NCBI GenBank assembly: GCA_029932015.1
Contig: JAOZQW010000001.1
Location: 1-39,201, forward strand
From: Candidatus Fermentibacteraceae bacterium
GTDB taxonomy: Bacteria; Fermentibacterota; Fermentibacteria; Fermentibacterales; JCC-6
Direction: 5' to 3'
DNA length: 39,201 nucleotides
Shown here: positions 1,569 to 26,609 of the stretch, one piece after another
Layout of the letters: each line of letters opens with the position of its first letter
How positions within the stretch are numbered: position 1 is the stretch's first letter
The notes under the pieces: model-generated
Seen by the model: the letters and a program-made list of their open reading frames with translations, nothing else
What the model was told of the DNA's origin: nothing
Databases searched by the model: none
Made by a program: the position numbers and the translations under genes

Positions 1569-1581
1569 TTCTCCCTCCTCC

Positions 1582-6591: not shown

Positions 6592-6606
6592 TCATTCCTT
6601 CCGACC

Positions 6607-6627
6607 GGGGCGGGTACAACCCGCCCC
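6607..6627 (-). other. Intercistronic GC hairpin between the PorV-like and GWxTD genes
   Basis: GGGGCGGG-tacaa-CCCGCCCC, 8-bp perfect stem. No U-tract on the minus strand. Followed immediately by the SD of the next gene. Confidence 0.5.
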
Positions 6628-6642
6628 TTCAGTAAGACTCAG

Positions 6643-7626
6643 CTAAAACGCAAACCCCAGGCTGGCTCTGTGAACCATGTCCAGCCTGCTCCAGTCCGCA
6701 TAGGCGTAGTCAAGGGTCAGCGTCTTACCGCCGATCGGGATACGGAATCCCGCTCCTGCGGTCAGACCCTCTTCGTCTGTGTTGATTCTGTAGCCGCCGC
6801 GAAGGGCGAACATGTTGTTGTACCAGTATTCTGTGCCGATGCCGAGCTGCTCGACGTTGTCACTAGGATGAATACCATCGACCTCTACTGTAAGGAAGTG
6901 AGGTCCCCTGTTGATAACATCCATAGCCATGCCGAGCTTGAAGGTCATAGGCATAGAGTACGACTCGTAGGCCATCAGCGAGTCCTGCCCGCTGTTGTAA
7001 GTGGTGAACTCACCATCGGGGGTGAGCTCGCCGCCGAAGTGCTGGATGGCCATGCCGATGCGCAGGGTTTTGAAGCCGGTATCGTAGAGAGTACCCATGT
7101 CAACGGCTATCCCGCCGGCGGAGACATCGTCCCACTGCTCTCTGACGTACTTGATCGTCAGACCAGCGCTGAACCTGTCCGTTAGCATCCTGGAAAACGT
7201 AAGTCCTGCAACCATGTCGGTGCAGTTGAATGTTTCCCCGGTACCTTCGGGCTGCTCAACCGTGGTGACGTCCATATCCCCGGACTGGAGCATGGCAAAC
7301 GAAACTGCGAATGTTCCAATTCCCTGGAACTCGCTGCTCACGACCGCGCCCCCGTAGAGGACATCCGCAAACCACTGTGTCCCGGTGAACTGCACCTGGG
7401 TGCCGGGCACCCTTACGAGACACGCAGGATTCCAGAACACCGCGCTGGGATCATCAGCGGAGGCAACAAATGCGCCTCCCATAGCGATACCACGCGTGCC
7501 CAGTCCCAGTTTAAGGAACTGCGCTCCGGAGGTTCCGACCTTAGCAAAGGAACTAGCCTCGACTGTCGTCGGAAACAGCAGGAAGGCGGCGACCGCTGCG
7601 GTCAGGATTACACCTGTAAGCTTCAT
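6643..7626 (-). CDS. PorV/PorQ-family outer-membrane beta-barrel protein
   Basis: N-terminal GTRGIAMGGAFVASADDPSAVFWNPACL motif and a C-terminal aromatic residue (LGFAF). Start moved to ATG 7626 (MKLTGVILTAAVAAFLL signal peptide) behind AAGGGAGGAG. Confidence 0.65.
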   Translation of the reverse strand: MKLTGVILTAAVAAFLLFPTTVEASSFAKVGTSGAQFLKLGLGTRGIAMGGAFVASADDPSAVFWNPACLVRVPGTQVQFTGTQWFADVLYGGAVVSSEFQGIGTFAVSFAMLQSGDMDVTTVEQPEGTGETFNCTDMVAGLTFSRMLTDRFSAGLTIKYVREQWDDVSAGGIAVDMGTLYDTGFKTLRIGMAIQHFGGELTPDGEFTTYNSGQDSLMAYESYSMPMTFKLGMAMDVINRGPHFLTVEVDGIHPSDNVEQLGIGTEYWYNNMFALRGGYRINTDEEGLTAGAGFRIPIGGKTLTLDYAYADWSRLDMVHRASLGFAF

Positions 7627-7639
7627 GGTCACTCCTCCC

Positions 7640-9871: not shown

Positions 9872-9988
9872 ACTTCCCTTTACCTCCAATTCCTAGATGA
9901 CTTCGTGGTTGCATCCCGAGTTCCATTATGGCTCTCGGTCCGCACATCCGCGATTCCGGTTATCTTCTCTTGCACTTTCATCATACGA

Positions 9989-10660
9989 TCAGTTTTCGAG
10001 ACTGAAGTTGTACGTGACGGTTGTCCATACACTCACTGGGATGCCGTTGTTCTGCGCGGGAGTCCACCTTGTGTTCCAGGCTGCCGACAGGGCCGCCTGA
10101 TCAAGTGCATTGACTCCGCTTGAATTGTAGAGCTGCACATCAACAACGCTTCCGCTAGAGTCGACGAACACCCATAGCACGACGCTGCCCTCTATCCCGG
10201 CCTGAAGGGCCATTGCCGGATAGTCGGGTCTTGGCTGATAGGTGCAGGTCGGAAATACCTCCGCCGGCATGAAACGCGGCGGTCCGGTGCCTTCCGACTC
10301 CTGCTCAGCAGCCTCGTCGCCCTGCTCGATCGTCGAAACCTCTTCGAGGCCTTCTGTCTCATCCTCGAGAGAGAGAGTCACATCGACGTCAAGTTCCTCA
10401 ACCTCCTGCTCGACTTCCTCCTCCTGCTCTTCCTGCTCCTCCTCGATCTCCTCTTCCTGCTCCTCGACGGTGTCATCGAAGGCGATGTCGGTTTCTACCG
10501 CCTCCATCTCGCTGTCCACCGTCCGCGTGGAGAGCCTACCAAGCTGGCTAGCCGGGATAAGCTCGAAGAAGATGATGAGTATCGCGAGGCCTATAACCAT
10601 GCCCCACTCGAAGTTGAGGGTGGAGTGCCTGTAATCGCCATTGCTGTCTTTGGACATCAT
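9989..10660 (-). CDS. tonB: Energy transducer TonB (C-terminal TonB domain, acidic linker)
   Basis: N-terminal TM segment. C-terminal YPAMALQAGIEGSVVLWVFVDSSGSVVDVQLYNSSGVNALDQAALSAAWNTRWTPA is a typical TonB_C domain. The linker is Glu-rich (EEQEEEIEEEQEEQEEEVEQEVEE) rather than Pro-rich. Confidence 0.8.
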   Translation of the reverse strand: MMSKDSNGDYRHSTLNFEWGMVIGLAILIIFFELIPASQLGRLSTRTVDSEMEAVETDIAFDDTVEEQEEEIEEEQEEQEEEVEQEVEELDVDVTLSLEDETEGLEEVSTIEQGDEAAEQESEGTGPPRFMPAEVFPTCTYQPRPDYPAMALQAGIEGSVVLWVFVDSSGSVVDVQLYNSSGVNALDQAALSAAWNTRWTPAQNNGIPVSVWTTVTYNFSLEN

Positions 10661-10668
10661 CCCCCCTC

Positions 10669-11130
10669 TCAGTAGAGTCCGAGTTCTTCAGCATTAAACT
10701 GAATACTGTATATCTCTTCAAACCTCATTGATCCGAAAAGATCGACCATTGCCTGCATCGGGACTCGCGAGTCGATGTTCAGCACAACAACGTCCAGACG
10801 CTTGTTCTGTTCGCGCCAGAACCTGTCGCTCAGAATGGACAGCTGCTCAGCGATCTGGGAGAGGGGCATATCGTAGTCCCCTATCCTTGCGACCAGCTCG
10901 CTGCTGTCATTGCCAGGCTCAACCTGCTTGACCCATACGGTGACCGTCAGGTACTGCTTGCCGAGCTCATTCATCACTTCGTGATGTGCCTGGGGGAAGC
11001 GGACCCGAAGGCCACCATCCTCCTTGAACAATGTAGTCGCCATGAAGAAAACCAGGAGCAGGAAAACGATGTCGGCCATCGTTCCCGTGAAGATATTTCC
11101 AGTAACCTTCATTCTTCTCTTGAATTTCAT
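10669..11130 (-). CDS. exbD: ExbD/TolR biopolymer transport protein
   Basis: 153 aa with N-terminal TM MADIVFLLLVFFMATTLF and typical ExbD length. ATGA overlap with the upstream gene. Confidence 0.8.
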   Translation of the reverse strand: MKFKRRMKVTGNIFTGTMADIVFLLLVFFMATTLFKEDGGLRVRFPQAHHEVMNELGKQYLTVTVWVKQVEPGNDSSELVARIGDYDMPLSQIAEQLSILSDRFWREQNKRLDVVVLNIDSRVPMQAMVDLFGSMRFEEIYSIQFNAEELGLY

Positions 11131-11879
11131 CAGGCATCACCTCCGAGTCTCTCCTGGATTGTGACTCCTGTCCTGCTCACGCCATTCAGGCGGAGAAGGT
11201 CAAGGGCAAATATCATGCCCTCATAATCACAATCCGGGAAGAACTTGAGGATCACGACCAGCTCGCTCTCTCGGACAACAGAGGCTATTTCGCCCTGCCG
11301 CACATCTGAGAGAACAAGTGTGTCACCGAAAGCGATCTCTCCGAAGATGGGATCCATCTCCAGCGGTATCCGGCTGCCCATGATGGTCCGCAGAATGCCG
11401 GGTCTCACCATGGGTACGAGATTTTCCGCACTAATCGCGGTTTCAAGTGAGCTGTACGTCCCGGAAGGAACGCCCTTAGCCACCTGGAGGTTGCTCAGAA
11501 GCCTGTCGAGCGATGCCGACATTGCTTCCACCCTCTGGGAGGCCAGCGTTCTTATTCCGTTATGCAGGCTCGTGTCCTGGAGGCTCACGTCCTCACCGGC
11601 TCTCGCCCTTTGCAGGGGGCCCTCGGGCGGCGCCTGATCGATCAGGGCCACATACTCGTGGGCTCCCCACTGCTTGATGGTCATGACGAGTCTGTTCGTC
11701 TCGTCGATGACCACTTCCTGGGTCTCCGAATCAGGCTTCTTTGGAAGCTTGAAAGAGATCCCTTTCTGCACCTCAAAAGTGGTCGTGACCAGGAAGAAGA
11801 TAAGCAGCAGGAACGCAATGTCGGACATTGAGGCATCGGGGATATCCCCGCTTGCTCTCGGTCTGTTACGTATCCGCAT
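11130..11879 (-). CDS. ExbD-like protein with ~100-aa internal insertion
   Basis: ExbD-type N-terminus SMSDIAFLLLIFFLVTTTF and C-terminal ExbD-like fold segment, but 249 aa long. AAGGAG SD. Confidence 0.7.
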   Translation of the reverse strand: MRIRNRPRASGDIPDASMSDIAFLLLIFFLVTTTFEVQKGISFKLPKKPDSETQEVVIDETNRLVMTIKQWGAHEYVALIDQAPPEGPLQRARAGEDVSLQDTSLHNGIRTLASQRVEAMSASLDRLLSNLQVAKGVPSGTYSSLETAISAENLVPMVRPGILRTIMGSRIPLEMDPIFGEIAFGDTLVLSDVRQGEIASVVRESELVVILKFFPDCDYEGMIFALDLLRLNGVSRTGVTIQERLGGDA

Positions 11880-11897
11880 CCGTGCTCCTTCTTACCA

Positions 11898-12737
11898 TTA
11901 CAGCTGCTTGAGGTGCTCCATGTCCGACAGCTTATCCACGAGGAAAATGCTGGCTTCTTCCATATCGATCACGAATCGTCCGATCTTGGCGATGAAGTAG
12001 TTATGGGCCATCTGGATCGGAATCGCGATTGTAAGACCAGTCGCAGTTGTGATGAGGGCTTCCTGGATACCACCGGCGACGAGGCTGGCCTCGACGTTCT
12101 TCGCAGCGGCAATCTCACCGAAAGCCTTGATCATTCCAGAAACCGTACCAAGGAATCCAAGCATCGGTGCGATGCTCGAGACCGAAGCAAGTACAACGAT
12201 ACCCTTCTCGAGGAAGGCCATTTCAATACCGCCTGCGCTCTCGACAGCCTTCTCGACGGCTTCAAGTCCCTTGTCGTGTCGGACAAGTCCGGCATGCATT
12301 ATCGATGCAACAGGTCCACTTGTCCTGGCGCAGAGATCCTCAGCGCCTTTGATATCGCCCTTACGGATGAAGCCACCGACCTTCTCGAGGAAGGAGTTGA
12401 CATCAATCCGGAGTTTGCCGTAGGTGATAAACCTCTCTACAGCAACAGCGATTCCGATAAGAAGCGAGAGAAGGAGCGGATACATGAAGGGTCCGCCTGC
12501 AAGGAAGAGGTCCTTGAGGTCCATGCTGGCGCTCTCCGCGCGCTCTACTTCCTCACCTACTGGAGCATCGGCCACGGGCTCCTGTACAACAGGTTCCTCG
12601 ATAACCGGCTCTTCAACTACAGGCTCCTCGATGACCTCGGTCACCTCTTCAATTGGAGCCTCTTCTGTTCCGGGTTCCTCTGGCTGTGCCCACGCTATGG
12701 CTGTGAGCACGAGGAACAGCAGCAGGAATTTACGCAT
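11898..12737 (-). CDS. exbB: MotA/TolQ/ExbB proton-channel protein with signal peptide and acidic repeat extension
   Basis: C-terminal SIAPMLGFLGTVSGMIKAF...GGIQEALITTATGLTIAIP is the MotA/ExbB signature. N-terminus has a signal peptide plus EEPV(V/I) repeats. Confidence 0.85.
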   Translation of the reverse strand: MRKFLLLFLVLTAIAWAQPEEPGTEEAPIEEVTEVIEEPVVEEPVIEEPVVQEPVADAPVGEEVERAESASMDLKDLFLAGGPFMYPLLLSLLIGIAVAVERFITYGKLRIDVNSFLEKVGGFIRKGDIKGAEDLCARTSGPVASIMHAGLVRHDKGLEAVEKAVESAGGIEMAFLEKGIVVLASVSSIAPMLGFLGTVSGMIKAFGEIAAAKNVEASLVAGGIQEALITTATGLTIAIPIQMAHNYFIAKIGRFVIDMEEASIFLVDKLSDMEHLKQL

Positions 12738-12818: not shown

Positions 12819-15593
12819 CTACCACTCGATACCGAGGCCGAACCTGATCATTCTGGGTCTGCTGAAGACGTACGGATTACCTGCAGATCCCTTGGGATCG
12901 TGATCGGGCTGGCCGTCGCCGTTCATGTCGGCATCGTACCAGGCCGGATCAATGATGGTGTTGATATTCTGCCTGTCGAACAGGTTGTTGACCTGACAGT
13001 AGGCATCAAGGATCAGATCACCGACCCAGAAGGTCTTGTTGACCTTGAGGGTGGTCATCATGGTCCATGGATATCTCTGACCATTGATCTCCGGCTGGGC
13101 GGTTCCCTGATCAGCCTGGCTGTAGGGGAATCCGCTGCCGTAGTTCCAGGAGAGATGAAGACCGAAGCCTTCGAGGAACGGGGTTTCACCGATCCTGGGA
13201 CCCTCACCCTGTGGAATGCGGAAATCGAATTCCGCGTTGACACTGTGCCTCTGGTCCCAATTGAGATAGGACTCCTTCTTGGGAATTATCCAGCCGGCCC
13301 ATGTGTACTGGTAGTTCTGGGTCGAGCCGGAGCTCTTGCCCATGGCAATTGCGTAAGTGTAGTTGACGCTGCCTGACCAGAAATTGCTCGGCCTTCTCTG
13401 AAGAGTCAGCTCTGCACCTCTGATATTACCGTAGTCACCATTGATGAAGAGGTCGTAGGCATCAACCGCAGAGTAGAAGTTCTGCTGCATGTCGACGAGA
13501 CCGGTGATGTCCTTGTAGTAGCCCGTTACGTCGATCATGGTGATGTCGTCGAACTGATGCTTCACACCGATCTCGTAGGAGATGGTCTCCTCAGGAGACA
13601 GGTCGGGATTGCCAACCTGCGGGAAGGCGCCCGAGAGGTCGAAGTCAGCCCCGCGGAACATACGGTCGAATGCAGGGGTCTGGAAGTAGTGACCGTATGT
13701 GAAGTGAAGGACATCGCGCTCGGTGATGGGATGGGAGAATCCAACACGCGGACTCAGGTGGTACTTCACCGGAACGCTGACTGGATTGATGATGTGATCC
13801 GGATCGCCGGCCTCTGTCCCGGGATTAACGGGGTTCGTGGGATCGGCGGGATACTCATCAAAATTGGGATCGAAGTAATCGAAGCGAAGACCGGCATTAA
13901 CGATCATGCCGCGATACTCCATCTTGTCCTGGATATACGCCGCACCCGAATTGGGGAAGGCGTGATATCTGTTGGCATAGATGTTGCCACCTGAGGCCGT
14001 ATCGATGCTGTAATCGAAGATGTCGTAGTACTTGCCCTCAATACCGGCCTTGAGCTGATGCTCCTGATTGATCTGGCTTGTGAGATCCATCCTGAAAGTG
14101 GAGGTTGTGCTCACCGTCTCGCCCCACGCCATACGGCTTGCACCCTGACGGTAGAACCCGTCGGTGTCCTGTATCCTGGAGGGCGTGTAATTCTGCCAGT
14201 CGTCCCAGCTCCAGTCCTCACCGAGCCACTCTGTCTGAAGAGTGGGATCGGTGGCATCTGGATTATTTCTGATCTTGTAGCTGAAAGCCGCCTGGTACTG
14301 GTTGAGTTTGACTTCCATGAATGTGGCGTCGCTGAGAGTCTGGGTGACGCTAATGCCGACACTGTAGTTGTTCCAGAACCTTGTAGGCAGACCGTAGAGA
14401 ATGTCCTTGCCCCAGGCGAGAGTGTCGCCATAAGCCGAGGAGGTGGTATCCGTGTCGATGTAGGGATTCTCGAACCTGTGCCATCCCCAATCGCTCCAGC
14501 CGGCCATGCGATCCATGTAGTAACCGGTAAGGTTGATCTTGGTTCTGGGGTTGGGCTTGTAAGTGAGCTTGACGTTACCGGTGTAGGTCTGACCCCAGTC
14601 GTTGTAACCGTAGCCGTACCTTCCGTTCTCGCCTCCACCTGTCTGAAGGTATTCACCGACGAGGAAGAGGTTCATGTCGCCGGGGATGTCGAGACCGATG
14701 GCGGGTAGAAGGTAGCTTGTGATGGGCTCGGGTCCGCCCAGGGAGGCCTCGGCATTAAGCCTGGCTTCCGCAAAGGGACCGATATTGCTCCATCTCCATC
14801 CGCTATCGGGTGCAGCTGGATCGATACCGCCCCAGTGCCAGTCGCTGGCAAGGCCGAGGGCATCAAAATTGTTGCCGTTCGCGCTGATCTCACCATGGTA
14901 CGAACGTCCACCCTCGCGGGTGACGATGTTGACCACACCGGACTGCGCATTACCGTACTCTGCTCCAAAACCACCACTTATGATGGAGGTCTCGGCAACA
15001 GCTGACATCGGGATGTCACTGTTGAAAACATTGTTCGTCGGGTCGATCTGAGCGACGCCGTCAACGAGGTAAACGACCTCGCCGCTGCGGCCACCGCGCA
15101 TGTGGAGGCCGCCCCTGTTGGTGGCGCCTGCCTGCCTGCCGACCACATCTGCAATACCGGCGACGGGCATGGTCCTTATCTCATCTCGACCGACGACCGA
15201 AACGGACTCGCTCGAGTTGAAAAGGATCGCATCCCTTGAGCCGGACACCTGTATAAAGGTCTCTCCGACTGTTCCGCCGCTATTCAGCGAAAAGTTCAGC
15301 GGGGATGTCTGGTCAACGATGACCATCACACCCTGCGCTGTCTGGTCCTGCATACCGACCATTCGAGCCTGTACATCGTACTGGCCAGGCTGCAGGTTGA
15401 TGATGAAGTACTCTCCATTGGCATCCGTCATTGCGCCGTAGGAAGTCCCTACGACCATCACGGTGGCACCGATGAGCGGCTCTCCTGAGCCGTCGGTGAT
15501 TCTTCCGGCTATCTTGCCGGTGGTACCAGCCGTTGCTGACAGAGCCACGAACAGCACTAGGACAATGGACAGTAACGTTGCTTTTCTAGGCAC
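12819..15593 (-). CDS. TonB-dependent receptor with N-terminal carboxypeptidase-regulatory-like domain (paralog 1)
   Basis: N-terminal GKIAGRITDGSGEPLIGATVMVVGTSYGAMTDANGEYFIINLQPGQY (CarbopepD_reg-like), a plug-like region, a long beta-barrel and a C-terminal aromatic residue (GLGIEW). GTG start at 15593 behind GGAAGGGAG. Confidence 0.85.
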   Translation of the reverse strand: MPRKATLLSIVLVLFVALSATAGTTGKIAGRITDGSGEPLIGATVMVVGTSYGAMTDANGEYFIINLQPGQYDVQARMVGMQDQTAQGVMVIVDQTSPLNFSLNSGGTVGETFIQVSGSRDAILFNSSESVSVVGRDEIRTMPVAGIADVVGRQAGATNRGGLHMRGGRSGEVVYLVDGVAQIDPTNNVFNSDIPMSAVAETSIISGGFGAEYGNAQSGVVNIVTREGGRSYHGEISANGNNFDALGLASDWHWGGIDPAAPDSGWRWSNIGPFAEARLNAEASLGGPEPITSYLLPAIGLDIPGDMNLFLVGEYLQTGGGENGRYGYGYNDWGQTYTGNVKLTYKPNPRTKINLTGYYMDRMAGWSDWGWHRFENPYIDTDTTSSAYGDTLAWGKDILYGLPTRFWNNYSVGISVTQTLSDATFMEVKLNQYQAAFSYKIRNNPDATDPTLQTEWLGEDWSWDDWQNYTPSRIQDTDGFYRQGASRMAWGETVSTTSTFRMDLTSQINQEHQLKAGIEGKYYDIFDYSIDTASGGNIYANRYHAFPNSGAAYIQDKMEYRGMIVNAGLRFDYFDPNFDEYPADPTNPVNPGTEAGDPDHIINPVSVPVKYHLSPRVGFSHPITERDVLHFTYGHYFQTPAFDRMFRGADFDLSGAFPQVGNPDLSPEETISYEIGVKHQFDDITMIDVTGYYKDITGLVDMQQNFYSAVDAYDLFINGDYGNIRGAELTLQRRPSNFWSGSVNYTYAIAMGKSSGSTQNYQYTWAGWIIPKKESYLNWDQRHSVNAEFDFRIPQGEGPRIGETPFLEGFGLHLSWNYGSGFPYSQADQGTAQPEINGQRYPWTMMTTLKVNKTFWVGDLILDAYCQVNNLFDRQNINTIIDPAWYDADMNGDGQPDHDPKGSAGNPYVFSRPRMIRFGLGIEW

Positions 15594-16164: not shown

Positions 16165-19011
16165 TCACCATTCGAGCCCGAGTCCGAAGGATATCGTTCG
16201 AGGTCTGCTGAAGGCGTACATGTTGTTCAGGGGGCCAGTGGGATCATGACCTGCCCCACCGCACTCATCCATTCCCATATCTGCATCGTACCACTCTACA
16301 TCGGCAATGAAGTCGACATTGTGACTGTTGAACAGGTTATCCACCTCGCACCAGGCATTCAGGGTCATGTCCCCGAGCCAGAAGGCTCTGCTTACTTTGA
16401 GGTCAGCTATCAACGTAGAGGGGTATCGCTCTCCGTTGATGACAGGCCGGGCGGTTCCCTGATTAGTCTGGCTGTAGGGGAATCCGCTGCCGTAGCGGCA
16501 TGACAGATGAGTATCGAGGCCCTCAAAAACGGGGACACCCGCTATCCGCAATCCCCTGCCTCTGGGCACCCTGTGGTTGAGTTCGATACTGACGGTATGC
16601 CGCTGGTCCCAGTCCAGATAGTGCTCACGGATCAGTGGTTCCCAACCCTCAGTTACCGTACGGTACCCCAGCAGAACGTTGGAGCTGCTTCCTTTTGCGA
16701 CTGAGTATGTGTAGCCGATGCTGCCGGAAAGGAAGGAATCAGCATACTTTCGGAGCAGGACATCGAACCCGGATGCATCTGCATAGTCGAGGTTGTCGTA
16801 TATGAAGAAGTCAGGCTCAGATCCACCGGATGAGTAAACCGGCCTTGTGTCAACAAGACCTGACATATCGCGGTAGAATGCAGTGATGTCGAAGTATGCA
16901 TCATTACCAAGCTCATGCCGCAGTCCCGCTTCATATGCGACCGTCACTTCGTGGGAAAGATCGGGATCACCAAGAACTGGTATCTCCCCGGGTTTGCTCG
17001 ACGGCTGTCCTCCGCCGTACATCAGATCGAGCCTTTGATGCCGACTGTAATGACAATACGAAACGTGCAATACACCCTGCTCACTCAGAATGTACGACAC
17101 TCCAAGTCTGGGGTTTAGCCTGAACTTGGGTGAACCGGTCAGAGAGTCAGCCAGGGTTGGTGGATAATCCGGCCCCGGATCGACCGGGCCGGATGGAGGG
17201 TCGATATCCTGATTCGGATCGAAGTAATCGAGCCGGGCGCCGATGTCCAGAACAACACCGTCCAGCCACATTCTGTCCCGCAGGTATAATGCCCCGGAGT
17301 TGGGAAATGCATGGTACCTGTTGAAATGTGCCGCACCTGCTGAGGGTACATCCACGCTGTAATGGAATACGTCAAAATACTTGAGCTCAATACCGGCCTT
17401 GAGCTGGTTCCTTCTGCTGATCATTGTAGTCAGATCGGTCCTGAGAGTTGATACAATACTCTCGGTCTCGCTCCAGGCATGCCGGCTGGTTCCAGCTCTA
17501 TAGAATCCCTCTTCATCCACTGAGCGCTGCGGATCGTAAGCCTGCCATTGCTCCTCTCCCCAGCCTTCCCCAAGCCACTCGGTATCGTACGGACCTTGGG
17601 GATCGTTCCGTATCCTGCGGTCGAAGGAGGTTCGATAGCTGTTGAGAGCAACATCGATATAAGTGACATCACTCAGTGTCTGCATGAAATTCAGCCCAAT
17701 GGCGGAATTCTCCCAGCTCCTGGTAGGAAGACCGTAGAGGATGTCCCGTCCCCAGGCCAGGGTGTCCCCATAGGCTGGCGAGAGGGAGTCGGTGTCGATG
17801 TAAGGCTCCTCGTACCTGCTCCAGTTCCAGAAGTCTCCGATACCGAACCAGCCTTCAGTCCTGTCCATTTTGAAATAGGTCAGACTGAACATTGTTCCAG
17901 AATAGGGTCTATATGTCAGCTTCACATTACCAGTGTACGAAGTGAGCCATTCATCGAAGCCGTAGCCGTACCTTCCATCCTCACCTCCCCCGGTCTGTCG
18001 GAATCCGCCTGACGCAAATACTCGAACATCACCGGGAATGTCTATGCCAATGGCCGGAAGGAGGTAATTCGCAATGGGCTCCGGTCCTCCAATGGAGACC
18101 TCGGCATTGAATCTGGCGTCCGAGAAGGGGCTCACATTGCTCCATCTCCAGCCGCTGTCAGGAGATGCTGGATCAAAGCCTCCCCAGTGAGAGTCGCTGG
18201 CAAGACCGAGGGCCTGCCAGTCATTTCCACCAATGTTTATCGAACCATGATATGAAGACCTGCCCTCTGGAGTAATGATATTGACTGCATCGGATTGAGC
18301 ACTACCGTACAATGTGTCAAATCCGTCACGGTGGAGCGAGATCCTGCTGATTGCGGACATCGGGATGTCGCTGCTGAAGAAACCGGTAGTCGGATCTGTA
18401 TGTTCAACACCATCGACTGTATATACAGCCTCCCCGGCTCTACTTCCCCGGAAATGGAGAGTGCTTCCAATTGCTGAAGCATCCCGCACACCCAGCCACT
18501 CAGTATATGGACTGTCGTGTCCGACCTCACCCCAGCGCTCACCGCAGTTGGTGACGCTCACCGTCCCTGCGATGAAGTCCTGAATACCGGCAACGGGCAG
18601 TGGGGTTATGTCTTCTGGACTCGAAACAATTACTGCATTGTCATTAATTAAAGTACTGCCTGAGACAACGATGCGAGTATCGCAGGCGACTTCCTCTTTG
18701 AGAAAGAAGTCAACTGACACAGTATCCCCCGCGAGTACATGTACAACAGGGGATGTTTCGGCTTCAAAACAGATCATAGCAGCCTGAAGTTCATATACGC
18801 CCTTGGGGAGGTTGATTATTATGTACTCACCATTGGCATCAGTCATTGCGCCGTACGAAGTCCCAATGACCATCACGGTAGCAGTGAACCGAGGTTCACC
18901 AGACTCATCCCATACATGCCCGACAATGGTGCCTGTATCGCCTGCGACTGCAATCGAGGTGGCCGACAGCAGAGTCATCAGTACGATTCCCGTTACGGCT
19001 CTGACACCCAT
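16165..19011 (-). CDS. TonB-dependent receptor with carboxypeptidase-regulatory-like domain (paralog 2)
   Basis: Collinear with paralog 1 over its whole length and ends GLGLEW. Preferred start is ATG 19011 (MGVRAVTGIVLMTLLSATSIAVA), 8 nt after GAAGGGA. ATG 19020 and TTG 19035 are alternatives. Confidence 0.85.
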   Translation of the reverse strand: MGVRAVTGIVLMTLLSATSIAVAGDTGTIVGHVWDESGEPRFTATVMVIGTSYGAMTDANGEYIIINLPKGVYELQAAMICFEAETSPVVHVLAGDTVSVDFFLKEEVACDTRIVVSGSTLINDNAVIVSSPEDITPLPVAGIQDFIAGTVSVTNCGERWGEVGHDSPYTEWLGVRDASAIGSTLHFRGSRAGEAVYTVDGVEHTDPTTGFFSSDIPMSAISRISLHRDGFDTLYGSAQSDAVNIITPEGRSSYHGSINIGGNDWQALGLASDSHWGGFDPASPDSGWRWSNVSPFSDARFNAEVSIGGPEPIANYLLPAIGIDIPGDVRVFASGGFRQTGGGEDGRYGYGFDEWLTSYTGNVKLTYRPYSGTMFSLTYFKMDRTEGWFGIGDFWNWSRYEEPYIDTDSLSPAYGDTLAWGRDILYGLPTRSWENSAIGLNFMQTLSDVTYIDVALNSYRTSFDRRIRNDPQGPYDTEWLGEGWGEEQWQAYDPQRSVDEEGFYRAGTSRHAWSETESIVSTLRTDLTTMISRRNQLKAGIELKYFDVFHYSVDVPSAGAAHFNRYHAFPNSGALYLRDRMWLDGVVLDIGARLDYFDPNQDIDPPSGPVDPGPDYPPTLADSLTGSPKFRLNPRLGVSYILSEQGVLHVSYCHYSRHQRLDLMYGGGQPSSKPGEIPVLGDPDLSHEVTVAYEAGLRHELGNDAYFDITAFYRDMSGLVDTRPVYSSGGSEPDFFIYDNLDYADASGFDVLLRKYADSFLSGSIGYTYSVAKGSSSNVLLGYRTVTEGWEPLIREHYLDWDQRHTVSIELNHRVPRGRGLRIAGVPVFEGLDTHLSCRYGSGFPYSQTNQGTARPVINGERYPSTLIADLKVSRAFWLGDMTLNAWCEVDNLFNSHNVDFIADVEWYDADMGMDECGGAGHDPTGPLNNMYAFSRPRTISFGLGLEW

Positions 19012-19058
19012 TTCAGCCATCCCTTCGGTCAGCAATTCAATTGATATAGATAATTGAG

Positions 19059-19160: not shown

Positions 19161-19189
19161 GGGGACATGCACCGCCGGTGCATGTCCCC
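19161..19189 (-). terminator. Terminator hairpin ending the 12-gene gcv-to-membrane-protein array
   Basis: GGGGACATGCACC-gcc-GGTGCATGTCCCC, 13-bp stem. On the minus strand it is followed by TATCCTTATCCTTT. It lies 24 nt after the stop codon that begins at 19214. Confidence 0.6.
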
Positions 19190-19213: not shown

Positions 19214-19873
19214 CTAGGCCCCTCCTCCTATCCCAAGTATCCTCGGGATGGTGGGGAGCCACTCGAACATGAGGAACTGAGACTGCCCGATAAGCAGACT
19301 GAGTCTGGCCATTATCGTGTATCCGAAGCTGGCACCGAAGGCTACCATCAGTATGGTGATGCCAAGGTTTGCGGTACCTCCGATAATCCCCGTATGCTCC
19401 TTCGAGAAGAAGAAGTAAACGAGACCGGATACGACACCGACCACCAGCACGAGGCTGCTGAACATCTCAAAAGCACTGCCAGCCGAGATGGAGATGATAC
19501 TTCCCTCCACCTGTGCAAGTGCATTCGTCTGGAAGACGCTGACCATGCCGAGTCCGGCACCAGCGCCGACGATCATGCCCAGGGCGAGCCTGGACAGTCC
19601 TGCGATCTTCGGGACTATCCTGGCCAGCATGAAGAAGGCGAAGATGCCAGGTATGACCCACACTATCTGGAAGCCGCCCTCCGCCGGGAACATGCGCTGC
19701 CACCAGTTGGGCTTGAGCACGTTCTCGATCGTGTAGATGACCCAGTAGCCTGCACTCATTCCTACGAAGAGGTGCTCGGCGAACTTGTAGAAGGGGTTAT
19801 CGCGGTACAGGAAACTGTAGAGCGAGAGCGATAGAAGAGCCCCTATCCATATACCCAGTATCTCCCAGTTCAT
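19214..19873 (-). CDS. Polytopic integral membrane protein, unknown function (membrane module gene 4)
   Basis: 219 aa with about 6 hydrophobic helices and no recognisable family motif. ATGA overlap with the upstream gene. Confidence 0.7.
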   Translation of the reverse strand: MNWEILGIWIGALLSLSLYSFLYRDNPFYKFAEHLFVGMSAGYWVIYTIENVLKPNWWQRMFPAEGGFQIVWVIPGIFAFFMLARIVPKIAGLSRLALGMIVGAGAGLGMVSVFQTNALAQVEGSIISISAGSAFEMFSSLVLVVGVVSGLVYFFFSKEHTGIIGGTANLGITILMVAFGASFGYTIMARLSLLIGQSQFLMFEWLPTIPRILGIGGGA

Positions 19874-20733
19874 TTCACACCTCCTTTCCGCTTCTTCTCA
19901 GCAAAATAGGCAACGTTACCCATCACTATCAGGAGCATTATCACCAGGTGCGCCACTGACTGCGGGGCCATTCCCGCAACAGCTCTTCCGCCCTCTGCCC
20001 CGACAGCGTCAGGGTGCTCGCGGACGAGAGTCTCGTAATCCGCTGCGCCCTTGAGGCCTCCGAGGAGGCCGACCAGCTGTCCCGTCCCGAGATAGGGATA
20101 GAACTGCGGGGCGCTGACAGCGGTACAGCCACCTCCGATAGGCACTCCGAATCGATCCCCAGCCATCATTATCCATGCGGGGATACCGGGGTCACCGGCG
20201 GAGAGCGAGAGGACCATATCGAAATCCTGCAGAGTGGAGTAAGCAGCAAGCATGGGGATCTCACTCCATGGCACATTGTCCTTGTCGGTGGGAAACACCG
20301 CCTGAATACCTGAACCGAGACGGACTATCATCACACCGCCGCCGGTCTTGTATCCGAGCATACACCAGTCCTCGTACTGGACCTTGCCGAGACTGTCTCC
20401 GACCGAGGACATGGCGTCCTGCCCGAGACTCGCCCCCATAGGCCACAGAGCCATTCCAACAACCTTGACGTCGTTCCTGAAGAGGTGCTGGAGCATTGCC
20501 ATTGCCATCGGCTGCAGCTCAGGCATCGTCGAAGGATCGTAGTCGAAACTCAGGAGAACGCTCGAACCAGCGGGGAGGGCTTCGACGTAGTCGAAAAGCG
20601 CTCTGCTGGGCTCGGCACCCACGGGATTCGGAAAAATCAGCCCGAGTGCCAGTGGGATGATCACGGAGAGGGCAATGAGAATGAAGATTATTCTCCTGTC
20701 CAGGTTGCCCATCTTCTCTATCATGCCGGCCAT
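19870..20733 (-). CDS. Bitopic membrane protein (N- and C-terminal TM helices flanking a ~220-aa soluble domain), unknown function (module gene 3)
   Basis: TM helices RIIFILIALSVIIPLALGLIF and VAHLVIMLLIVMGNVAYFA. The start overlaps the stop of the upstream gene (TGATG). Confidence 0.7.
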   Translation of the reverse strand: MAGMIEKMGNLDRRIIFILIALSVIIPLALGLIFPNPVGAEPSRALFDYVEALPAGSSVLLSFDYDPSTMPELQPMAMAMLQHLFRNDVKVVGMALWPMGASLGQDAMSSVGDSLGKVQYEDWCMLGYKTGGGVMIVRLGSGIQAVFPTDKDNVPWSEIPMLAAYSTLQDFDMVLSLSAGDPGIPAWIMMAGDRFGVPIGGGCTAVSAPQFYPYLGTGQLVGLLGGLKGAADYETLVREHPDAVGAEGGRAVAGMAPQSVAHLVIMLLIVMGNVAYFAEKKRKGGVK

Positions 20734-21356
20734 CAGTCCGTACCTCCAAGATAACTCCGCTCGATCCCGAAGATCATGCGGAGGGAGGTGGCGACCACGC
20801 CCATGGCGGCCCCGATCATCACCGCTCGCTGTCCAGCGGTGTTGGGAACGCTCATCAGCCAGACCTTGGCCAGAGGGATCTTATCCCAGATCATGGCGCC
20901 TATCGGCACCTGACCGAGCATGACGATGAAGGCCGAGGTGAGAAGCAGCGTCGCACGCCAGTTGGATGCCCTGAAGGCCCTGAAGGCGGCGGATGCCACG
21001 AAGAAGGCCAGCAGACTGAACATGGTGGCACCCATCGGAACTACAGCACTCTGGAACAGGTAGTCGAAAGGCATACCTTCGACCACTCCGTAGATGATGC
21101 CCGTGACGAGCATCATCAGGAAACCGATTATGGTGACCGGGCTGTATTTCCAGTTCTTCAGCTTGAGACGGATCTTCCTGAAGTGTACGTGGAGCAGATT
21201 CATCGCCCCGAGGAAGATTGCGGCCGAAGCCACTATCATGTACCATTCCTGCAGGTTGTCTCCGAGGAGCTTGAACGGCTCATGAGGTACAAAAAAGTTA
21301 AGCACCATTATCATGCCGGCCACGAATGTTATGGCCAGCGGTATCACTATTCTCAT
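20733..21356 (-). CDS. Polytopic integral membrane protein, unknown function (module gene 2)
   Basis: 207 aa with about 5-6 TM helices. GGAGG SD 5 nt upstream of ATG 21356. Confidence 0.7.
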   Translation of the reverse strand: MRIVIPLAITFVAGMIMVLNFFVPHEPFKLLGDNLQEWYMIVASAAIFLGAMNLLHVHFRKIRLKLKNWKYSPVTIIGFLMMLVTGIIYGVVEGMPFDYLFQSAVVPMGATMFSLLAFFVASAAFRAFRASNWRATLLLTSAFIVMLGQVPIGAMIWDKIPLAKVWLMSVPNTAGQRAVMIGAAMGVVATSLRMIFGIERSYLGGTD

Positions 21357-21365
21357 GCCGGCCTC

Positions 21366-22649
21366 CTAACTTACCGCGACCAGGCTGCGGAGGAAGTCCG
21401 CAACACTGCTCAATGGTGCCCAGAATTGACCTATCGTGGCAGCGATCACACCAAGGAGGATCAGGATGATGAAGAAGAGCTTACCGGCATCCTGCCCCTT
21501 GAGGCTTCCAAGGAGTTTTGGCTCTCTGGACAGGTATGCGCTGGCTGCAAAGAGCTCCTCCCCGATGAGTGTGTAGTCGCATGCGGCTACGAAGAAAGGT
21601 ATCTGACTGGGCATGGCGGTGCCGGCTATCTGGATAGCTCCTACGCTCCGGCCTGTCTCCGCGAGGATGAGGCTTTCCGCGTAGAAAGTACCCAGCATGA
21701 AGATGGCGGCAGGCTTCTCCCGCACCATAATACCGTCAACACCGGCTGCATACCCGAACTGGTCATCTGTAAGGTACTGGATATCCTCTCTGTTGAAGGC
21801 GTCGGGGCGTCCTGCCTGGAGGTAGGATTCCTTGACAACCTCCTGAGCCACACTCATCACGACGCTCCTGGCGGTCGGGACCATGAGTGCAGAACCGTAC
21901 TCCGCGGTCTTGATGGCTACTCTGCCGAGGATCACCATGCTCGCGATCGTCTGTATGTCATCCATATCCATGATGCCGGGGATGTATAGGACCGGCTTGC
22001 CCATTTCCGTAGCTCGTCCTACTGCATCGTCAACGGCGGCAAGTCCCGCGATCTCCCGGATGTACAGCTTCTTACCACGCTTGGCCGTCTCGATGTAGTA
22101 GATAATGATGAGGGAAAGTGCGGCGAGTATGATAAGCATAGCTACACGGCCGGAGTGGATCCACTGGGCAGAGGACGAAGCGTCAGCTTCATCAGAGACC
22201 GCTGCAGGGGTCCCGTCCGGTCTGAGTGATTCTATCCAGTAGCTGTACGAATCCCCATCGGAAACTGTGGTGTCAGTGTACCTTGTTGAAATACCCCCGA
22301 GAGTGGCGATCCTCTCCTCCACCCCGGAAGGACCGCGACGGATAACCGCAAGTGAATCGGGAACTTCATCCTTGATGTCGAAGTCCCATGCGAGACTCAC
22401 CGACCCGCCGGCATCGTTGGGGTGATCTGTGGCCTGGAGGTCGAACACCCTGTCGAGAGCCGCCACGCGGACGGTATTTGTCAGATGGGCCGGAGCGATG
22501 ACTACTTCTTCAGGACCGGACGGCCGCTCCTCCCCTCCGGTTTCCTCCTCAACTGCCGACTCTGGTCTCTCAGGCGGATCTACCCCCTGAGCTGCCACCG
22601 TGCCGACCGCAAGGAGGAGCAGCGCCAGCAGAACAGCCGTACGCCTCAT
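21366..22649 (-). CDS. Membrane protein: signal peptide, extracytoplasmic FN3/Ig-like domain, TM, ~230-aa domain, C-terminal TM; unknown function (module gene 1)
   Basis: MRRTAVLLALLLLAVGTVAAQG signal peptide. SVSLAWDF...YTDTTVSDGDSYSYWIESL is FN3-like. TM helices VAMLIILAALSLIIIYYI and LFFIILILLGVIAATIG. SD AGGGAGGGAG. Confidence 0.7.
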   Translation of the reverse strand: MRRTAVLLALLLLAVGTVAAQGVDPPERPESAVEEETGGEERPSGPEEVVIAPAHLTNTVRVAALDRVFDLQATDHPNDAGGSVSLAWDFDIKDEVPDSLAVIRRGPSGVEERIATLGGISTRYTDTTVSDGDSYSYWIESLRPDGTPAAVSDEADASSSAQWIHSGRVAMLIILAALSLIIIYYIETAKRGKKLYIREIAGLAAVDDAVGRATEMGKPVLYIPGIMDMDDIQTIASMVILGRVAIKTAEYGSALMVPTARSVVMSVAQEVVKESYLQAGRPDAFNREDIQYLTDDQFGYAAGVDGIMVREKPAAIFMLGTFYAESLILAETGRSVGAIQIAGTAMPSQIPFFVAACDYTLIGEELFAASAYLSREPKLLGSLKGQDAGKLFFIILILLGVIAATIGQFWAPLSSVADFLRSLVAVS

Positions 22650-22670: not shown

Positions 22671-22715
22671 CCTGAGAAAGCGCCCCGGGCGGTCACCCGG
22701 GGCGCAGTTCTCAGG
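22671..22715 (-). other. Strong composite hairpin in the only sizeable gap of the 12-gene array
   Basis: CCTGAGAA-a-GCGCCCCGGG-cggtca-CCCGGGGCGC-ag-TTCTCAGG, 18 paired positions. On the minus strand the inner stem is followed by TTTCT. Confidence 0.55.
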
Positions 22716-23865: not shown

Positions 23866-25743
23866 CTACTCTTCCCCCCCCATGCTGAGGAAACGCTCAG
23901 GATATGTGTCCAGGGCCTTCGACCACTCCTGGAGCTTGGCCACACGGGTGGCCTCGTCCTCAGGAAGCTCGAACGGCCGACGGCCACGTCCATCGAGTAT
24001 CAGGCCAACTACCCCCCCCTCAAGCTCACCAGCCCACATCTCACCTAAACCGGCTCCTGCATCGATGTGCTTGGCGGGGACTATCTCCGCCTGCACCTTC
24101 TCACCTACTCCCAGAGGGATGAGCTCTATACGGTCGATCTCGATGGGGTGCTCCTCCAGCGAACCATCTGACCTGGTCATCTTCAGAGTCGCCAGAACTT
24201 TCGCCTTCTTTGCCGGACCGGTCGGGGCAACACATGTCCCGAGCTTGATCAGACAGTCCTTGTCGAATACTTCGGTAGCAGCTTTGGGATGCACTTCGGA
24301 GAGTACTCCGAGCTGCGGCATCATGAATATCGAGTCCACCGCTAGCATTGTGATACCCTCAGGAAGGAAAGCATCGATCAGCATGTGTGCGGCCTGGCAT
24401 CTTCTTGGAGCATGCGACAGGACCCCTCCTGAGCCGATCAGAAGATTCAGTCCCATCATGTCCACCAGAGTACCGCCGGACTGAGTCTGCTCGAATGCAT
24501 CTCCGATGGTCCGCTCCTGAGCCACTCCCTTGAGACCTGTCGCCAGTTCCCTGTGCTGGATAAGCGCCAGTCTCAGCGCTTCTCTTGCTATTGCCTGCTC
24601 TATTATGAGCTCCTCCAGCAACTGCGGTATCGTGGTAGGCCGTATCATCTTGTTCCTGATACGGTTCCTCAGATCGGCTTCATCCATCATGAACGGGACC
24701 CAGCGCATGACATTGTCGAGCCCTGCGCTGGCAAGAACGTTTGAAACGCTGTAGCTCATACCGAGATTGGCTGAGACCGTCCTGTTGAAAACGGGAGCAC
24801 CTTCACTGGTGAAAACGCTGAACACGTCAGTGGTAGCCCCACCGATATCAACGCCCATCACTTCGATCTCCTCGTTCTTCGCCACGGACTCTATGAGTTT
24901 ACCAACAGCTCCGGGAGTGGGCATGATGGGAAGCTGTTTCCACTCACCTTCAACAAAATGACCGGCCCAACTCATCAATCTTGCGTAGCCCGGAGCCTGC
25001 GCCATCACGTGCTCCATGAACAGCTCGTGTATCTCATCTCTGGCCGGTCCGAGGTTCTCCCTCTCCAGCACAGGTCTGAGGTTGTCAACGACCTTGAGTT
25101 CCATGGAGTCAGACAGCTCACCTGCCACAGCATCCGTTGCATCCTTGTTGCCTGCATAGATGACCGGCAGCTTGTAGCCTACCCCGAACCGGGGCTTTGG
25201 ATCAGCGGCCCTGACCACCTCGGCCAGTTCAATAACATGGTCGATCGTTCCACCGTCGATGCCGCCGGAAAGAAGGATCATATCCGGCCTGAGCCTTCTG
25301 ATGTCGGCGACCTTCTCGTGGGGAAGCCTTCCATCGTTTGAGGCCACGACGTCCATTACAATAGCTCCTGCCCCGAGCGCGGCCCTCTGGGCGCTCTCTC
25401 CCGTCATGGACTTCACGACACCTGCAACGGTCATCTGAAGTCCTCCTCCGGCGGATGAGGTCGACATGTATATGTCAACGCCTTTGTCTCCGTCGGCCGA
25501 GACGTTCACGCCATCCTTGGCATCATTAAGCAGTTCAATACCTTCGAGATCCTCGATCTCTCCTACTGCGTTCAGCACACCCTTGGTTACATCCTCAGCC
25601 GGAGCCTCGACCGTGGTCGGGGCCTCTCCTCTGCGAATGAGACGGAACTCACCATCCCGCTTCTCGATGAGAATGGCCTTGGTGGTGGTGCTGCCGCAGT
25701 CAGTCGCCAGTATCCTGGTGATCTCCTTGCTGGCCACCGCCAT
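23866..25743 (-). CDS. GlmL/MutL-like ASKHA-superfamily ATPase (glutamate-mutase-accessory-like), 625 aa
   Basis: N-terminal ILATDCGSTTTKAILI (phosphate-1) and MGVDIGGATTDVFSV (phosphate-2) motifs typical of the GlmL/EutA-type ASKHA family. It is about 150 aa longer than classical GlmL. AAGGAGG SD. Confidence 0.7.
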   Translation of the reverse strand: MAVASKEITRILATDCGSTTTKAILIEKRDGEFRLIRRGEAPTTVEAPAEDVTKGVLNAVGEIEDLEGIELLNDAKDGVNVSADGDKGVDIYMSTSSAGGGLQMTVAGVVKSMTGESAQRAALGAGAIVMDVVASNDGRLPHEKVADIRRLRPDMILLSGGIDGGTIDHVIELAEVVRAADPKPRFGVGYKLPVIYAGNKDATDAVAGELSDSMELKVVDNLRPVLERENLGPARDEIHELFMEHVMAQAPGYARLMSWAGHFVEGEWKQLPIMPTPGAVGKLIESVAKNEEIEVMGVDIGGATTDVFSVFTSEGAPVFNRTVSANLGMSYSVSNVLASAGLDNVMRWVPFMMDEADLRNRIRNKMIRPTTIPQLLEELIIEQAIAREALRLALIQHRELATGLKGVAQERTIGDAFEQTQSGGTLVDMMGLNLLIGSGGVLSHAPRRCQAAHMLIDAFLPEGITMLAVDSIFMMPQLGVLSEVHPKAATEVFDKDCLIKLGTCVAPTGPAKKAKVLATLKMTRSDGSLEEHPIEIDRIELIPLGVGEKVQAEIVPAKHIDAGAGLGEMWAGELEGGVVGLILDGRGRRPFELPEDEATRVAKLQEWSKALDTYPERFLSMGGEE

Positions 25744-26167
25744 CTACCTCCTTCTTATTGACTGAGCCTCTGCCCCTGAAAAGGCGGCTCCACAGGGAAC
25801 CCCTCTCCTTCCGCAATGCCTTACGGGATGCCTTCTGCTCCCGTTTGAGTGTTGCGTCACGGGCATTTTCCTCTTCTATGGCCAGGGTGAGTTTTTCGAT
25901 GTTCTCCCTGTCCTCTATCATTCGTACAAATCTGTAGTACTCACCGGAGCTGACAACCAGTGAAACCACCGGATTGGCAAATATCAGAAGCTGGTTACCG
26001 AGAAATGATAACGGTTTTATCGATTCCAGGAAAATGATGGCAGGTACAGTAAGCTGTCTCTGCACAATGCCTTTAGCCAGCTTATCAATAAGCGATGTGA
26101 AGTCCTCTGTACCGTCGACATCGGTCAGGCTACTGATCCCCGGCGGTATGTGCCCTGATGTATCCAA
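25700..26167 (-). CDS. Small (about 155 aa) membrane-associated protein, unknown function
   Basis: Hydrophobic core LTVPAIIFLESIKPLSFLGNQLLIFANPVVSLVV and a basic C-terminal tail. No ATG is available after the upstream stop. I propose the TTG start at 26167 behind GAGAGGAAG. It overlaps the neighbouring genes by 38 and 44 nt. Confidence 0.5.
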   Translation of the reverse strand: MDTSGHIPPGISSLTDVDGTEDFTSLIDKLAKGIVQRQLTVPAIIFLESIKPLSFLGNQLLIFANPVVSLVVSSGEYYRFVRMIEDRENIEKLTLAIEEENARDATLKREQKASRKALRKERGSLWSRLFRGRGSVNKKEVDGGGQQGDHQDTGD

Positions 26168-26609
26168 GGACTTCCTCTCTGTTGCCGGAGAACTGCACTG
26201 ACAGCCCTCTGAACTTTGCCAGCCTTGTTGGCTGAGGGAATGGACTGAGAAGGACTCCGTACCTGTCAGGCACAATACTCCTGACCTGCTTCCATGTCTT
26301 GCGTTCAACGCCGAAGACTGATTTCTTGCTCACACCTTCAGCATCCATTCTGAACCGGCATGGCATGAAGTAGCTCCACATCGAGAGCAGAAGAAGCAGG
26401 ATCCCGATGAGCCCCCACCAGGCATTTTCACCGGTAAGGGCAGCTACCGTTCCGGCCAGCAATATCATGAAGACCAGAAGCAGTGTCGCAAGCGGTCTCT
26501 CTCTGGCCGGATGGGAAACCCACTCCAGGAGTTGAATTCCGGACCCTTCGGTCCCGCTAAGCTCTGCTGCTCTCTCCTCAGTCAGCTTACTCCTCCACCC
26601 TCGGTTCAA
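26130..26609 (-). CDS. Two-TM membrane protein with bacterial PH (bPH/YdbS-like) domain, tentative
   Basis: Two TM helices (LATLLLVFMILLAGTVAAL and WGLIGILLLLLSMWSYF), then a domain of about 80 aa (FRMDAEGVSKKSVFGVERKTWKQVRSIV...). The start is uncertain: TTG at 26609, with no ATG before the first TM helix. Confidence 0.5.
   Translation of the reverse strand: MNRGWRSKLTEERAAELSGTEGSGIQLLEWVSHPARERPLATLLLVFMILLAGTVAALTGENAWWGLIGILLLLLSMWSYFMPCRFRMDAEGVSKKSVFGVERKTWKQVRSIVPDRYGVLLSPFPQPTRLAKFRGLSVQFSGNREEVLGYIRAHTAGDQ

Follow-up and report, generated by a model that had tools for sequence, protein, structure and literature searches.

We describe a run of four genes in a stretch of DNA from a Candidatus Fermentibacteraceae bacterium (GenBank assembly GCA_029932015.1, contig JAOZQW010000001.1, positions 1 to 39,201 of the forward strand), which is referred to here, at its full length of 39,201 nucleotides (nt), as the window. 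The genes, called A to D, were taken from the list of open reading frames (ORFs) and lie on the minus strand: A (22649..21366) encodes 427 amino acids (aa), B (21356..20733) 207 aa, C (20733..19870) 287 aa and D (19873..19214) 219 aa. An earlier, sequence-only reading, made without database searches, had proposed four translationally coupled genes of these lengths, encoding membrane proteins of no recognisable family that together form a candidate novel membrane complex. All four are present as minus-strand ORFs. The junctions are as that reading gave them: 9 nt separate A from B (TAG-GAGGCCGGC-ATG), B meets C in TGATG and C meets D in ATGA. They are maintained elsewhere, junction lengths being kept across 58-68 loci. 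The spacing from A to B in other genomes is mostly 9-11 nt, that from B to C mostly -1 or -4, and C and D overlap by 4 nt (-4) in 56 of 64 loci.

The scan for relatives covered one genome per species and gave at least 579 stretches with relatives of A, of which 80 loci were kept (L numbers below denote individual loci). The gene order of these 80 loci is constant, A being followed by B, C and D, and of the 54 loci that extend at least 2.3 kb downstream of A, 53 contain the full quartet. The lineages concerned are Fermentibacteria, WOR-3, Stahlbacteria, Latescibacteria, Coatesbacteria, Zixibacteria and TA06, together with one Planctomycetota metagenome-assembled genome and several further lineages, so that the quartet is fixed across at least seven phylum-level lineages. 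Cross-phylum identity is unusually high, at 59% for A, approximately 52% for B and approximately 47% for C and D. The family is also large: when 1.84 billion cluster representatives were searched, A was matched at E < 1e-104 by more than 150 clusters at 50% identity, and at 90% identity there are at least 8,000 clusters for A and approximately 7,900 for B. Because the four genes do co-occur in other genomes, we favour the candidate-complex reading, and on these comparative grounds it is highly probable that A, B, C and D form a genuine conserved complex.

Protein A is the one member of the quartet that falls into a described family. It matches Pfam DUF6754 (PF20539) with 405.2 bits (E 1.2e-121) over residues 160-410 and model positions 2-252 of 257, set against a gathering score of 27 bits, and every homologue examined carries the domain. 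The earlier statement that none of the proteins has a recognisable family thus stands for B, C and D and falls for A. DUF6754 is a sequence family without assigned function whose Pfam model omits both the ectodomain of A and the partners B, C and D, and a profile search of PDB sequences found nothing for the DUF6754 region. From hydropathy and the positive-inside rule, A is predicted to have a cleavable signal peptide (approximately aa 1-22), as the sequence-only reading had proposed, followed by an acidic, FN3-like periplasmic ectodomain (approximately aa 50-150), a transmembrane (TM) helix at aa 169-187 with the basic flank KRGKK, a second TM helix at aa 391-409 and a short periplasmic tail. 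The 203 residues between the two helices are predicted to be cytoplasmic and correspond to the DUF6754 domain.

The ectodomain of A is the variable part of the family. Among the more than 150 clusters at 50% identity, the TM-DUF6754-TM unit is constant, and the N-terminal ectodomain is nearly absent in some and reaches approximately 700 residues in others; of 62 long members, 18 carry BamB-like (PQQ_2) beta-propellers, three carry fn3 domains and the others have ectodomains that were not recognised. The FN3-like character noted earlier for the window protein finds some agreement here, the family profile weakly matching PDB entry 3mpc, 'Fn3-like protein' (E 0.001), and homologues with longer ectodomains matching Pfam fn3 (E 4e-24); the window protein itself has no Pfam fn3 match at E <= 1. 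What does not hold is the idea that this region is an addition to one protein, as it is the variable N-terminal part of A throughout the family. Three giant proteins of 3,882-5,376 aa (P0361, P0364 and P0396) contain 31-45 repeats that match the ectodomain profile, and because of this we take the A ectodomain to be an FN3-type repeat module of wide occurrence.

Hydropathy and the positive-inside rule also agree with the earlier view that all four coupled genes encode membrane proteins, in an alternation of bitopic and polytopic forms: A and C have two TM helices each (with 203 and 226 residues between them, respectively), and B and D have approximately six each. B is predicted to have both termini in the cytoplasm (N-in/C-in), and its fourth helix, LLAFFVASAAFRAFR, is almost invariant. 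C is predicted to start with a basic, cytoplasmic N-terminus (N-in), then a TM helix, an acidic periplasmic domain of 226 residues, a second TM helix and a basic cytoplasmic KKRK tail. D is predicted to be N-out/C-out, an orientation supported by homologues in which D is prefixed by an extra N-terminal TM helix or signal peptide, and it carries the conserved motifs SFLYxDNPFYKFAEHLF and FGASFGYTVMARxSLLxG. Conserved domains would thus lie on both faces of the membrane, with DUF6754 in the cytoplasm and the C domain and A ectodomain in the periplasm.

Searches for relatives of B, C and D returned no family in Pfam or NCBIfam, either for the window proteins or when 35 B homologues, 28 D homologues and the C homologues were scanned singly at E <= 5, and profile searches of PDB sequences gave nothing for any of the three. 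Sub-threshold matches to TMD0_ABC appeared individually in 19 of the 35 B homologues (best 1.3e-5); these, together with matches to DUF998 and DUF7549, were judged to be hydrophobic noise. An AlphaFold2 model of C built from 66 sequences (pLDDT 87.8, pTM 0.81) places a six-stranded, Rossmann-like alpha/beta domain (approximately aa 40-240) between two long TM helices. Foldseek, which the sequence-only reading had suggested running on such models, gave only generic Rossmann-like matches in the PDB (best E 1.1e-3, TM-score <= 0.37), among them GT-B halves, short-chain dehydrogenases/reductases and UDP-GlcNAc 2-epimerases. The modelled fold of C therefore looks to be of an ordinary class, with no specific relative in the PDB. 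The corresponding model of B was unusable (pLDDT 53.7), and from this failure B may need its partners in order to fold.

Some homologues carry inserts in these proteins. The Planctomycetota homologue of B (L085:4594-5856) has an FHA/YscD-cytoplasmic-like domain inserted in the loop between the third and fourth TM helices, and another B homologue (L092:11559-12599) has an unrelated, acidic insert of 128 aa at the same site. Homologues of C and D also have lineage-specific inserts in loops predicted to be periplasmic.

The layout of the quartet had earlier been read as a duplicated pair, A and B corresponding to C and D. The two halves are indeed similarly built (TM helix, alpha/beta domain of approximately 200-225 aa, TM helix; then a protein with approximately six TM helices), and the strand-helix order of the C model resembles an alternating pattern read by eye in the A domain. 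The motifs offered in support exist literally, since AGTAMPSQIPFF...LFAASAY is found in A and GGCTAVSAPQFYPY...LKGAADY in C, and the F..(D/E)xPF(K/Y) motif ascribed to B and D holds approximately (FVPHEPFK in B, FLYRDNPFY in D). However, the likeness between A and C and between B and D was no greater than chance in any test run. BLASTP of A against C and of B against D gave E >= 2, and hhalign of the full-length profiles gave probabilities of 7.1% for A and C and 0.4% for B and D; with the soluble domains alone and with 143 diverse A-domain sequences, the A-C values were approximately 1% and 1-2%, respectively, within an overall range of 0.06-2.5%. The sole reproducible local match joins the first TM helix of A and its basic flank to the last TM helix of C and its basic flank. 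Within each pair, moreover, the two proteins are predicted to have opposite orientations in the membrane, the A domain being cytoplasmic and that of C periplasmic, B being N-in and D N-out. An ancient duplication that gave rise to both pairs is thus improbable and has no support in sequence (BLASTP, hhalign), though a relationship at the level of the fold is conceivable from the pattern read by eye.

Upstream of A the window encodes four further proteins on the minus strand. Nearest to the quartet lies the gene for a soluble protein of 374 aa, here P374 (23864..22740), for which we place the start at an ATG at 23864, the ORF call of 417 aa being over-extended. It is preceded by a gene for an ATPase of 625 aa (25743..23866) with a C-terminal extension of approximately 130 aa. 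The ATPase belongs to the GlmL/MutL family of actin-fold (ASKHA) proteins, as it matches Pfam MutL (PF13941) from end to end (410 bits, E 1.4e-122), and the motifs D15-x-G-S-T-T-T-K22, D299-IGGATTD306 and G437-SGG440 are invariant in 17 sequences. These are the phosphate-1, phosphate-2 and adenosine motifs, of general form DxGSTxTK, DIGGATTD and GSGG. The sequence-only reading had spoken of an upstream ATPase pair, which is right as regards one ATPase of the GlmL/MutL type; its partner P374 bears no evidence of being an ATPase. From its position P374 appears to be the genetic partner of the ATPase, and cross-phylum identity is approximately 66% for the ATPase and 55% for P374.

The ATPase resembles the GlmL/MutL accessory proteins of B12-dependent glutamate mutase and ornithine aminomutase in its MutL match and its ASKHA motifs. 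It differs from GlmL and Or-4 in the additional C-terminal domain of approximately 130 aa and in being linked to membrane proteins instead of mutases. Its scores lie below the NCBIfam equivalog cut-offs (220.9 against 475 for GlmL NF040745 and 205 against 600 for Or-4, both far short, and 162 against 204 for TIGR01319). Of the 28 window ORFs that were scanned against Pfam, none gave a significant match to a B12 mutase, the only trace being a sub-threshold B12-binding match of the ATPase itself (E 0.077; score 13 bits, cut-off 32), and mutase genes were absent from the related loci whose genes were listed. A profile search of PDB sequences with the ATPase found nothing.

P374 has no family, and profile searches found no relative among PDB sequences. 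Its N-terminal half may contain a barrel-sandwich hybrid domain, followed by an alpha/beta region: in the window protein a Biotin_lipoyl stretch spans aa 127-150, and the homologues give weak matches below cut-off to Biotin_lipoyl (11 of 17), RnfC_N (8 of 17, best 3.8e-5) and NQRA_N (4 of 17). These matches raise the question of whether the locus encodes a cofactor-less relative of Rnf/Nqr, in which B and D would stand for RnfA and RnfE, C for RnfG/NqrC and P374 for NqrA or the N-terminus of RnfC. The two systems are alike in having two subunits of approximately 200 aa and six TM helices in opposite predicted orientations, a bitopic periplasmic subunit and a soluble subunit with a barrel-sandwich hybrid domain, which in P374 is weakly supported, and two of the 17 P374 homologues also match NCBIfam rnfC. 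They differ in that the module described here has no FMN-binding domain, Fe-S cysteines or RnfD/NqrB equivalent. At E <= 5 the Rnf-Nqr family (PF02508) was matched by none of the 35 homologues of B and none of the 28 of D; C is Rossmann-like and has no FMN_bind match at the same threshold; and there are no conserved cysteine clusters. Profile comparison by hhalign of A, B, C, D and P374 with Escherichia coli RsxA, RsxB, RsxC, RsxD, RsxE and RsxG gave probabilities of at most 4%, this value coming from the comparison of the P374 type with RsxC, with 0.6% for RsxG and at most 0.5% for RsxA, RsxE and RsxD. The barrel-sandwich hybrid fold is widespread, and the weak RnfC_N and NQRA_N matches support a generic motif of that kind only. 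With both the Pfam scans and the Rsx comparisons negative, kinship with Rnf/Nqr is largely refuted, and we give it very little chance.

The remaining two upstream genes encode small membrane proteins. X (26167..25700, approximately 155 aa) comprises a hydrophobic hairpin and a charged tail; its probable start is a TTG at 26167, after AGAGGAAG, the ORF call of 202 aa being over-extended. This start lies within the 3' end of Y (a 38-nt overlap), and the X stop lies 44 nt inside the ATPase ORF. Y (26609..26130, approximately 159 aa, with an uncertain start) has two to three hydrophobic segments and a domain of approximately 75 aa. Homologues of Y occur in L087, L088, L091 and L092, and those of X adjoin the ATPase, A-B-C-D or both in other lineages. 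For all eight proteins, Pfam and NCBIfam returned DUF6754 (in A) and MutL (in the ATPase) only, which agrees with the earlier view that no transporter, secretion, respiratory or motility signature is present; A to D match no family of these kinds in Pfam, NCBIfam or the sequences of the PDB.

Many Fermentibacteria, the Latescibacteria and L066 share the order X-ATPase-P374-A-B-C-D. This order is extended by Y in L087 (Y-X-ATPase-P374-A-B-C-D) and takes the form ATPase-P374-A-B-C-D in Planctomycetota. Zixibacteria, Coatesbacteria and TA06 have two paralogous A-B-C-D sets with 44-53% mutual identity, and in the first two the order is A-B-C-D, X, ATPase, a DUF6134-like gene, P374 and A'-B'-C'-D'. 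From these arrangements it is rather probable that the ATPase and P374 are functional partners of the membrane proteins.

A few individual loci deserve mention. The paralogous sets that flank the ATPase genes were seen in L072, L074, L077/L083, L079 and L080 (Zixibacteria and Coatesbacteria); the two sets of L081 (TA06) stand in tandem, and L088 has an additional copy of C. A contig labelled as the archaeon Candidatus Methanocomedens (L024, QBUR01000191.1) carries a Fermentibacteria-like A-B-C-D with approximately 70% identity and a TonB-dependent-receptor-like gene, and is probably mis-binned. In two Fermentibacteria loci genes look truncated or split (B and C in L058; A, C and D in L059), which could be due to frameshifts, assembly errors or pseudogenes.

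Taken as a whole, these observations are best explained, in our tentative judgement, by A-B-C-D being the membrane core of a conserved, uncharacterised multi-subunit inner-membrane complex. A possible mechanism, which we put forward as a proposal short of an even balance, is that of an ATP-driven envelope machine. The eight proteins would assemble such that X, and perhaps Y, tethers the pair of ATPase and P374, which docks on A at its DUF6754 domain in the cytoplasm. The hydrolysis of ATP would then drive a conformational change through the 16-helix A-B-C-D core, passing by way of B and D to the C domain and the A ectodomain, where periplasmic work would be done, either by moving a substrate across the membrane or by acting mechanically on an envelope component. 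That the eight-gene module of Y, X, ATPase, P374 and A to D represents an unrecognised class of ATP-powered envelope machine with a housekeeping role is a doubtful proposition, on the unlikely side at present.

Several points weigh against this interpretation. GlmL-family proteins are otherwise tied to soluble B12-dependent mutases and not to membranes. The generic Rossmann-like fold of C gives no hint of a substrate, no usable model of B was obtained, and the FHA domain in the Planctomycetota homologue of B sits in a loop predicted to be periplasmic, which conflicts with the topology model. Furthermore, MutL and P374 genes are missing within 10 kb of A-B-C-D in WOR-3/Stahlbacteria, TA06 and approximately one third of Fermentibacteria loci, as well as in L086, L088, L089 and L092; because so many loci are of this kind, the ATPase may not be required, or its gene may lie elsewhere. 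Y and X remain beside A-B-C-D also in loci that have no adjacent ATPase (L088 and, in the order Y-X-A-B-C-D, L092). A further point is a conserved, terminator-like hairpin that parts P374 from A. In the window it is a GC-rich stem at 22680..22705 on the minus strand, followed by UUUCU (dG -32.6 kcal/mol, z -4.7), and a hairpin occurs at the same position in 13 other Fermentibacteria loci (L001, L005-L008, L010-L015, L018 and L019), where the stems differ, the pairing is kept and a U-rich tract is present in most. Because of this hairpin the ATPase and membrane halves are possibly expressed separately or at different levels, and it may set the ratio of ATPase to membrane genes by acting as an internal terminator or attenuator.

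These same observations can be taken to mean that A-B-C-D works without the ATPase, as an envelope complex that is passive or driven by the proton-motive force, and that the adjacency of MutL and P374 reflects co-regulation only. However, the order MutL-P374-A recurs in FCB-group candidate phyla and in Planctomycetota, Zixibacteria and Coatesbacteria have the ATPase genes enclosed by two A-B-C-D copies, and a distant genomic location is not equal to absence. On balance we regard a complex independent of the ATPase as improbable.

Beyond the quartet, a perfect 13-bp hairpin on the minus strand (19161..19189; dG -26.6 kcal/mol, z -5.6), 25 nt past the D stop, and a weaker terminator-like hairpin found by the terminator scan (19121-19101, minus strand) likely mark the end of the transcription unit. 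Downstream there follow two TonB-dependent-receptor-like paralogues on the minus strand (16165-19035 and 12819-15593; 956 and 924 aa, 49% identical) and then ExbB, two copies of ExbD and TonB (12737..9989), which are canonical and encoded apart from A to D. The two paralogues had no PDB sequence match by phmmer and align to TA06 genes with CarboxypepD_reg, Plug and TonB_dep_Rec_b-barrel domains. In Fermentibacteria, WOR-3/Stahlbacteria, TA06 and L089 (loci L061, L062, L063, L070, L076, L081 and L089) an ExbB-ExbD-ExbD-TonB set is found no more than a few kb downstream of A-B-C-D, often with TonB-dependent-receptor-like genes; in TA06 and L089 a lipoate-protein-ligase-like gene (LplA-B_cat) precedes ExbB. 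None of A to D matches MotA_ExbB, and ExbD was matched by three of the 35 B homologues at E 0.72. Further neighbours include bactofilin and PmbA/TldD (Zixibacteria), a MacB/FtsX pair, MurJ/LptA/LptB and HEAT- and TPR-repeat proteins. The theme of the neighbourhood is the cell envelope, though no single neighbour is universal. Further downstream in the window (531-9889, minus strand) lie genes for two proteins with GWxTD domains, for an outer-membrane protein like FadL/PorV and for a protein of 848 aa that carries a C-terminal sorting domain of type IX secretion; they suggest that envelope genes form a long cluster here, all read in one direction.

TonB-dependent receptor and ExbBD-TonB genes beside A-B-C-D in four lineages would fit the inner-membrane leg of an uptake route, and thus bear on a reading in which A to D are a dedicated inner-membrane metabolite transporter and MutL/P374 a soluble enzyme, or an enzyme activator, that depends on ATP in the manner of the hydantoinase/oxoprolinase/GlmL branch, with the periplasmic domain of C as a tethered substrate-binding domain. 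The ATPase does fall in the hydantoinase-related MutL family, and the alpha/beta domain of C is broadly of the binding-protein type. We nonetheless consider a transporter of this kind unlikely, since searches at a threshold as loose as E <= 5 revealed no transporter family, the module has no metabolic gene as a regular companion, and the cross-phylum identity of 47-66% is far above what is usual for substrate-specific transporters. The variable ectodomain of A, with its FN3 and beta-propeller forms, looks suited to contact with proteins or the envelope and not to the handling of small molecules.

The bactofilin gene beside the Zixibacteria cluster bears in turn on a morphogenetic or cytoskeleton-linked scaffold, with a logic like that of MreB-MreC-MreD or of FtsA with the divisome, in which an actin-fold protein would assemble on the membrane complex and position envelope synthesis. 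As in MreBCD, the gene for an actin-fold ATPase is followed by those of bitopic and small polytopic membrane proteins, here in alternation, and conservation is very high, the 66% cross-phylum identity of the ATPase being at the level seen in cytoskeletal proteins. The ATPase also gives a weak MreB-like_C match (E 0.0015, below cut-off), and the FHA domain in the Planctomycetota B is of a kind found in phospho-regulated envelope machines. However, the ATPase belongs to another ASKHA branch, that of MutL and hydantoinase, which has no known polymerisation; the module has eight components and not three; no match to the MreB, MreC, MreD, FtsA or RodZ families was found; and many loci have no ATPase nearby. 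A scaffold of this kind therefore has a small chance of being correct.

Returning to the reading we prefer, that of an inner-membrane complex with the ATPase as a putative motor, its closest counterparts in mode of action would be the type VII ABC mechanotransducers MacB, LolCDE and FtsEX. The likeness is in the possible mode only: a cytoplasmic ATPase, membrane subunits and an envelope-acting periplasmic domain held between two TM helices. The module differs in having no ABC ATPase, its candidate motor being the actin-fold ATPase. No match to ABC_tran, ABC_membrane, ABC2 or FtsX rose above threshold for Y, X, ATPase, P374 or A to D, and A to D match neither FtsX nor MacB_PCD. The MacB/FtsX pair mentioned above stands beside one A-B-C-D locus. 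A reading as a defence system was dropped, without a PADLOC scan, as the module is single- or double-copy, core-like and far too conserved across phyla.

No known transporter, secretion, respiratory, motility or morphogenetic class accommodates the module, it has no solved relative, and no paper in the searched literature mentions DUF6754, PF20539 or PF13941 (searches for GlmL gave nothing relevant). The mechanism proposed for it is inferred.

The module is conserved almost as well as core cell machinery, in several phyla that are barely or not at all represented in culture. Should it prove to be an ATP-driven envelope machine based on an actin-fold ATPase, it would be a new way to couple energy to work that spans the inner membrane, and the first polytopic, periplasm-acting complex driven by such an ATPase and not by an ABC, AAA+ or P-type ATPase. 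Its housekeeping role would then be in envelope biogenesis, transport or maintenance across many uncultivated FCB-group phyla and some Planctomycetota, and it might explain how these organisms carry out an envelope task that is done by ABC-type systems in other bacteria. If the link to the ATPase is only regulatory, A-B-C-D, with Y and X, would still be a widespread membrane complex and a good target for structure determination.

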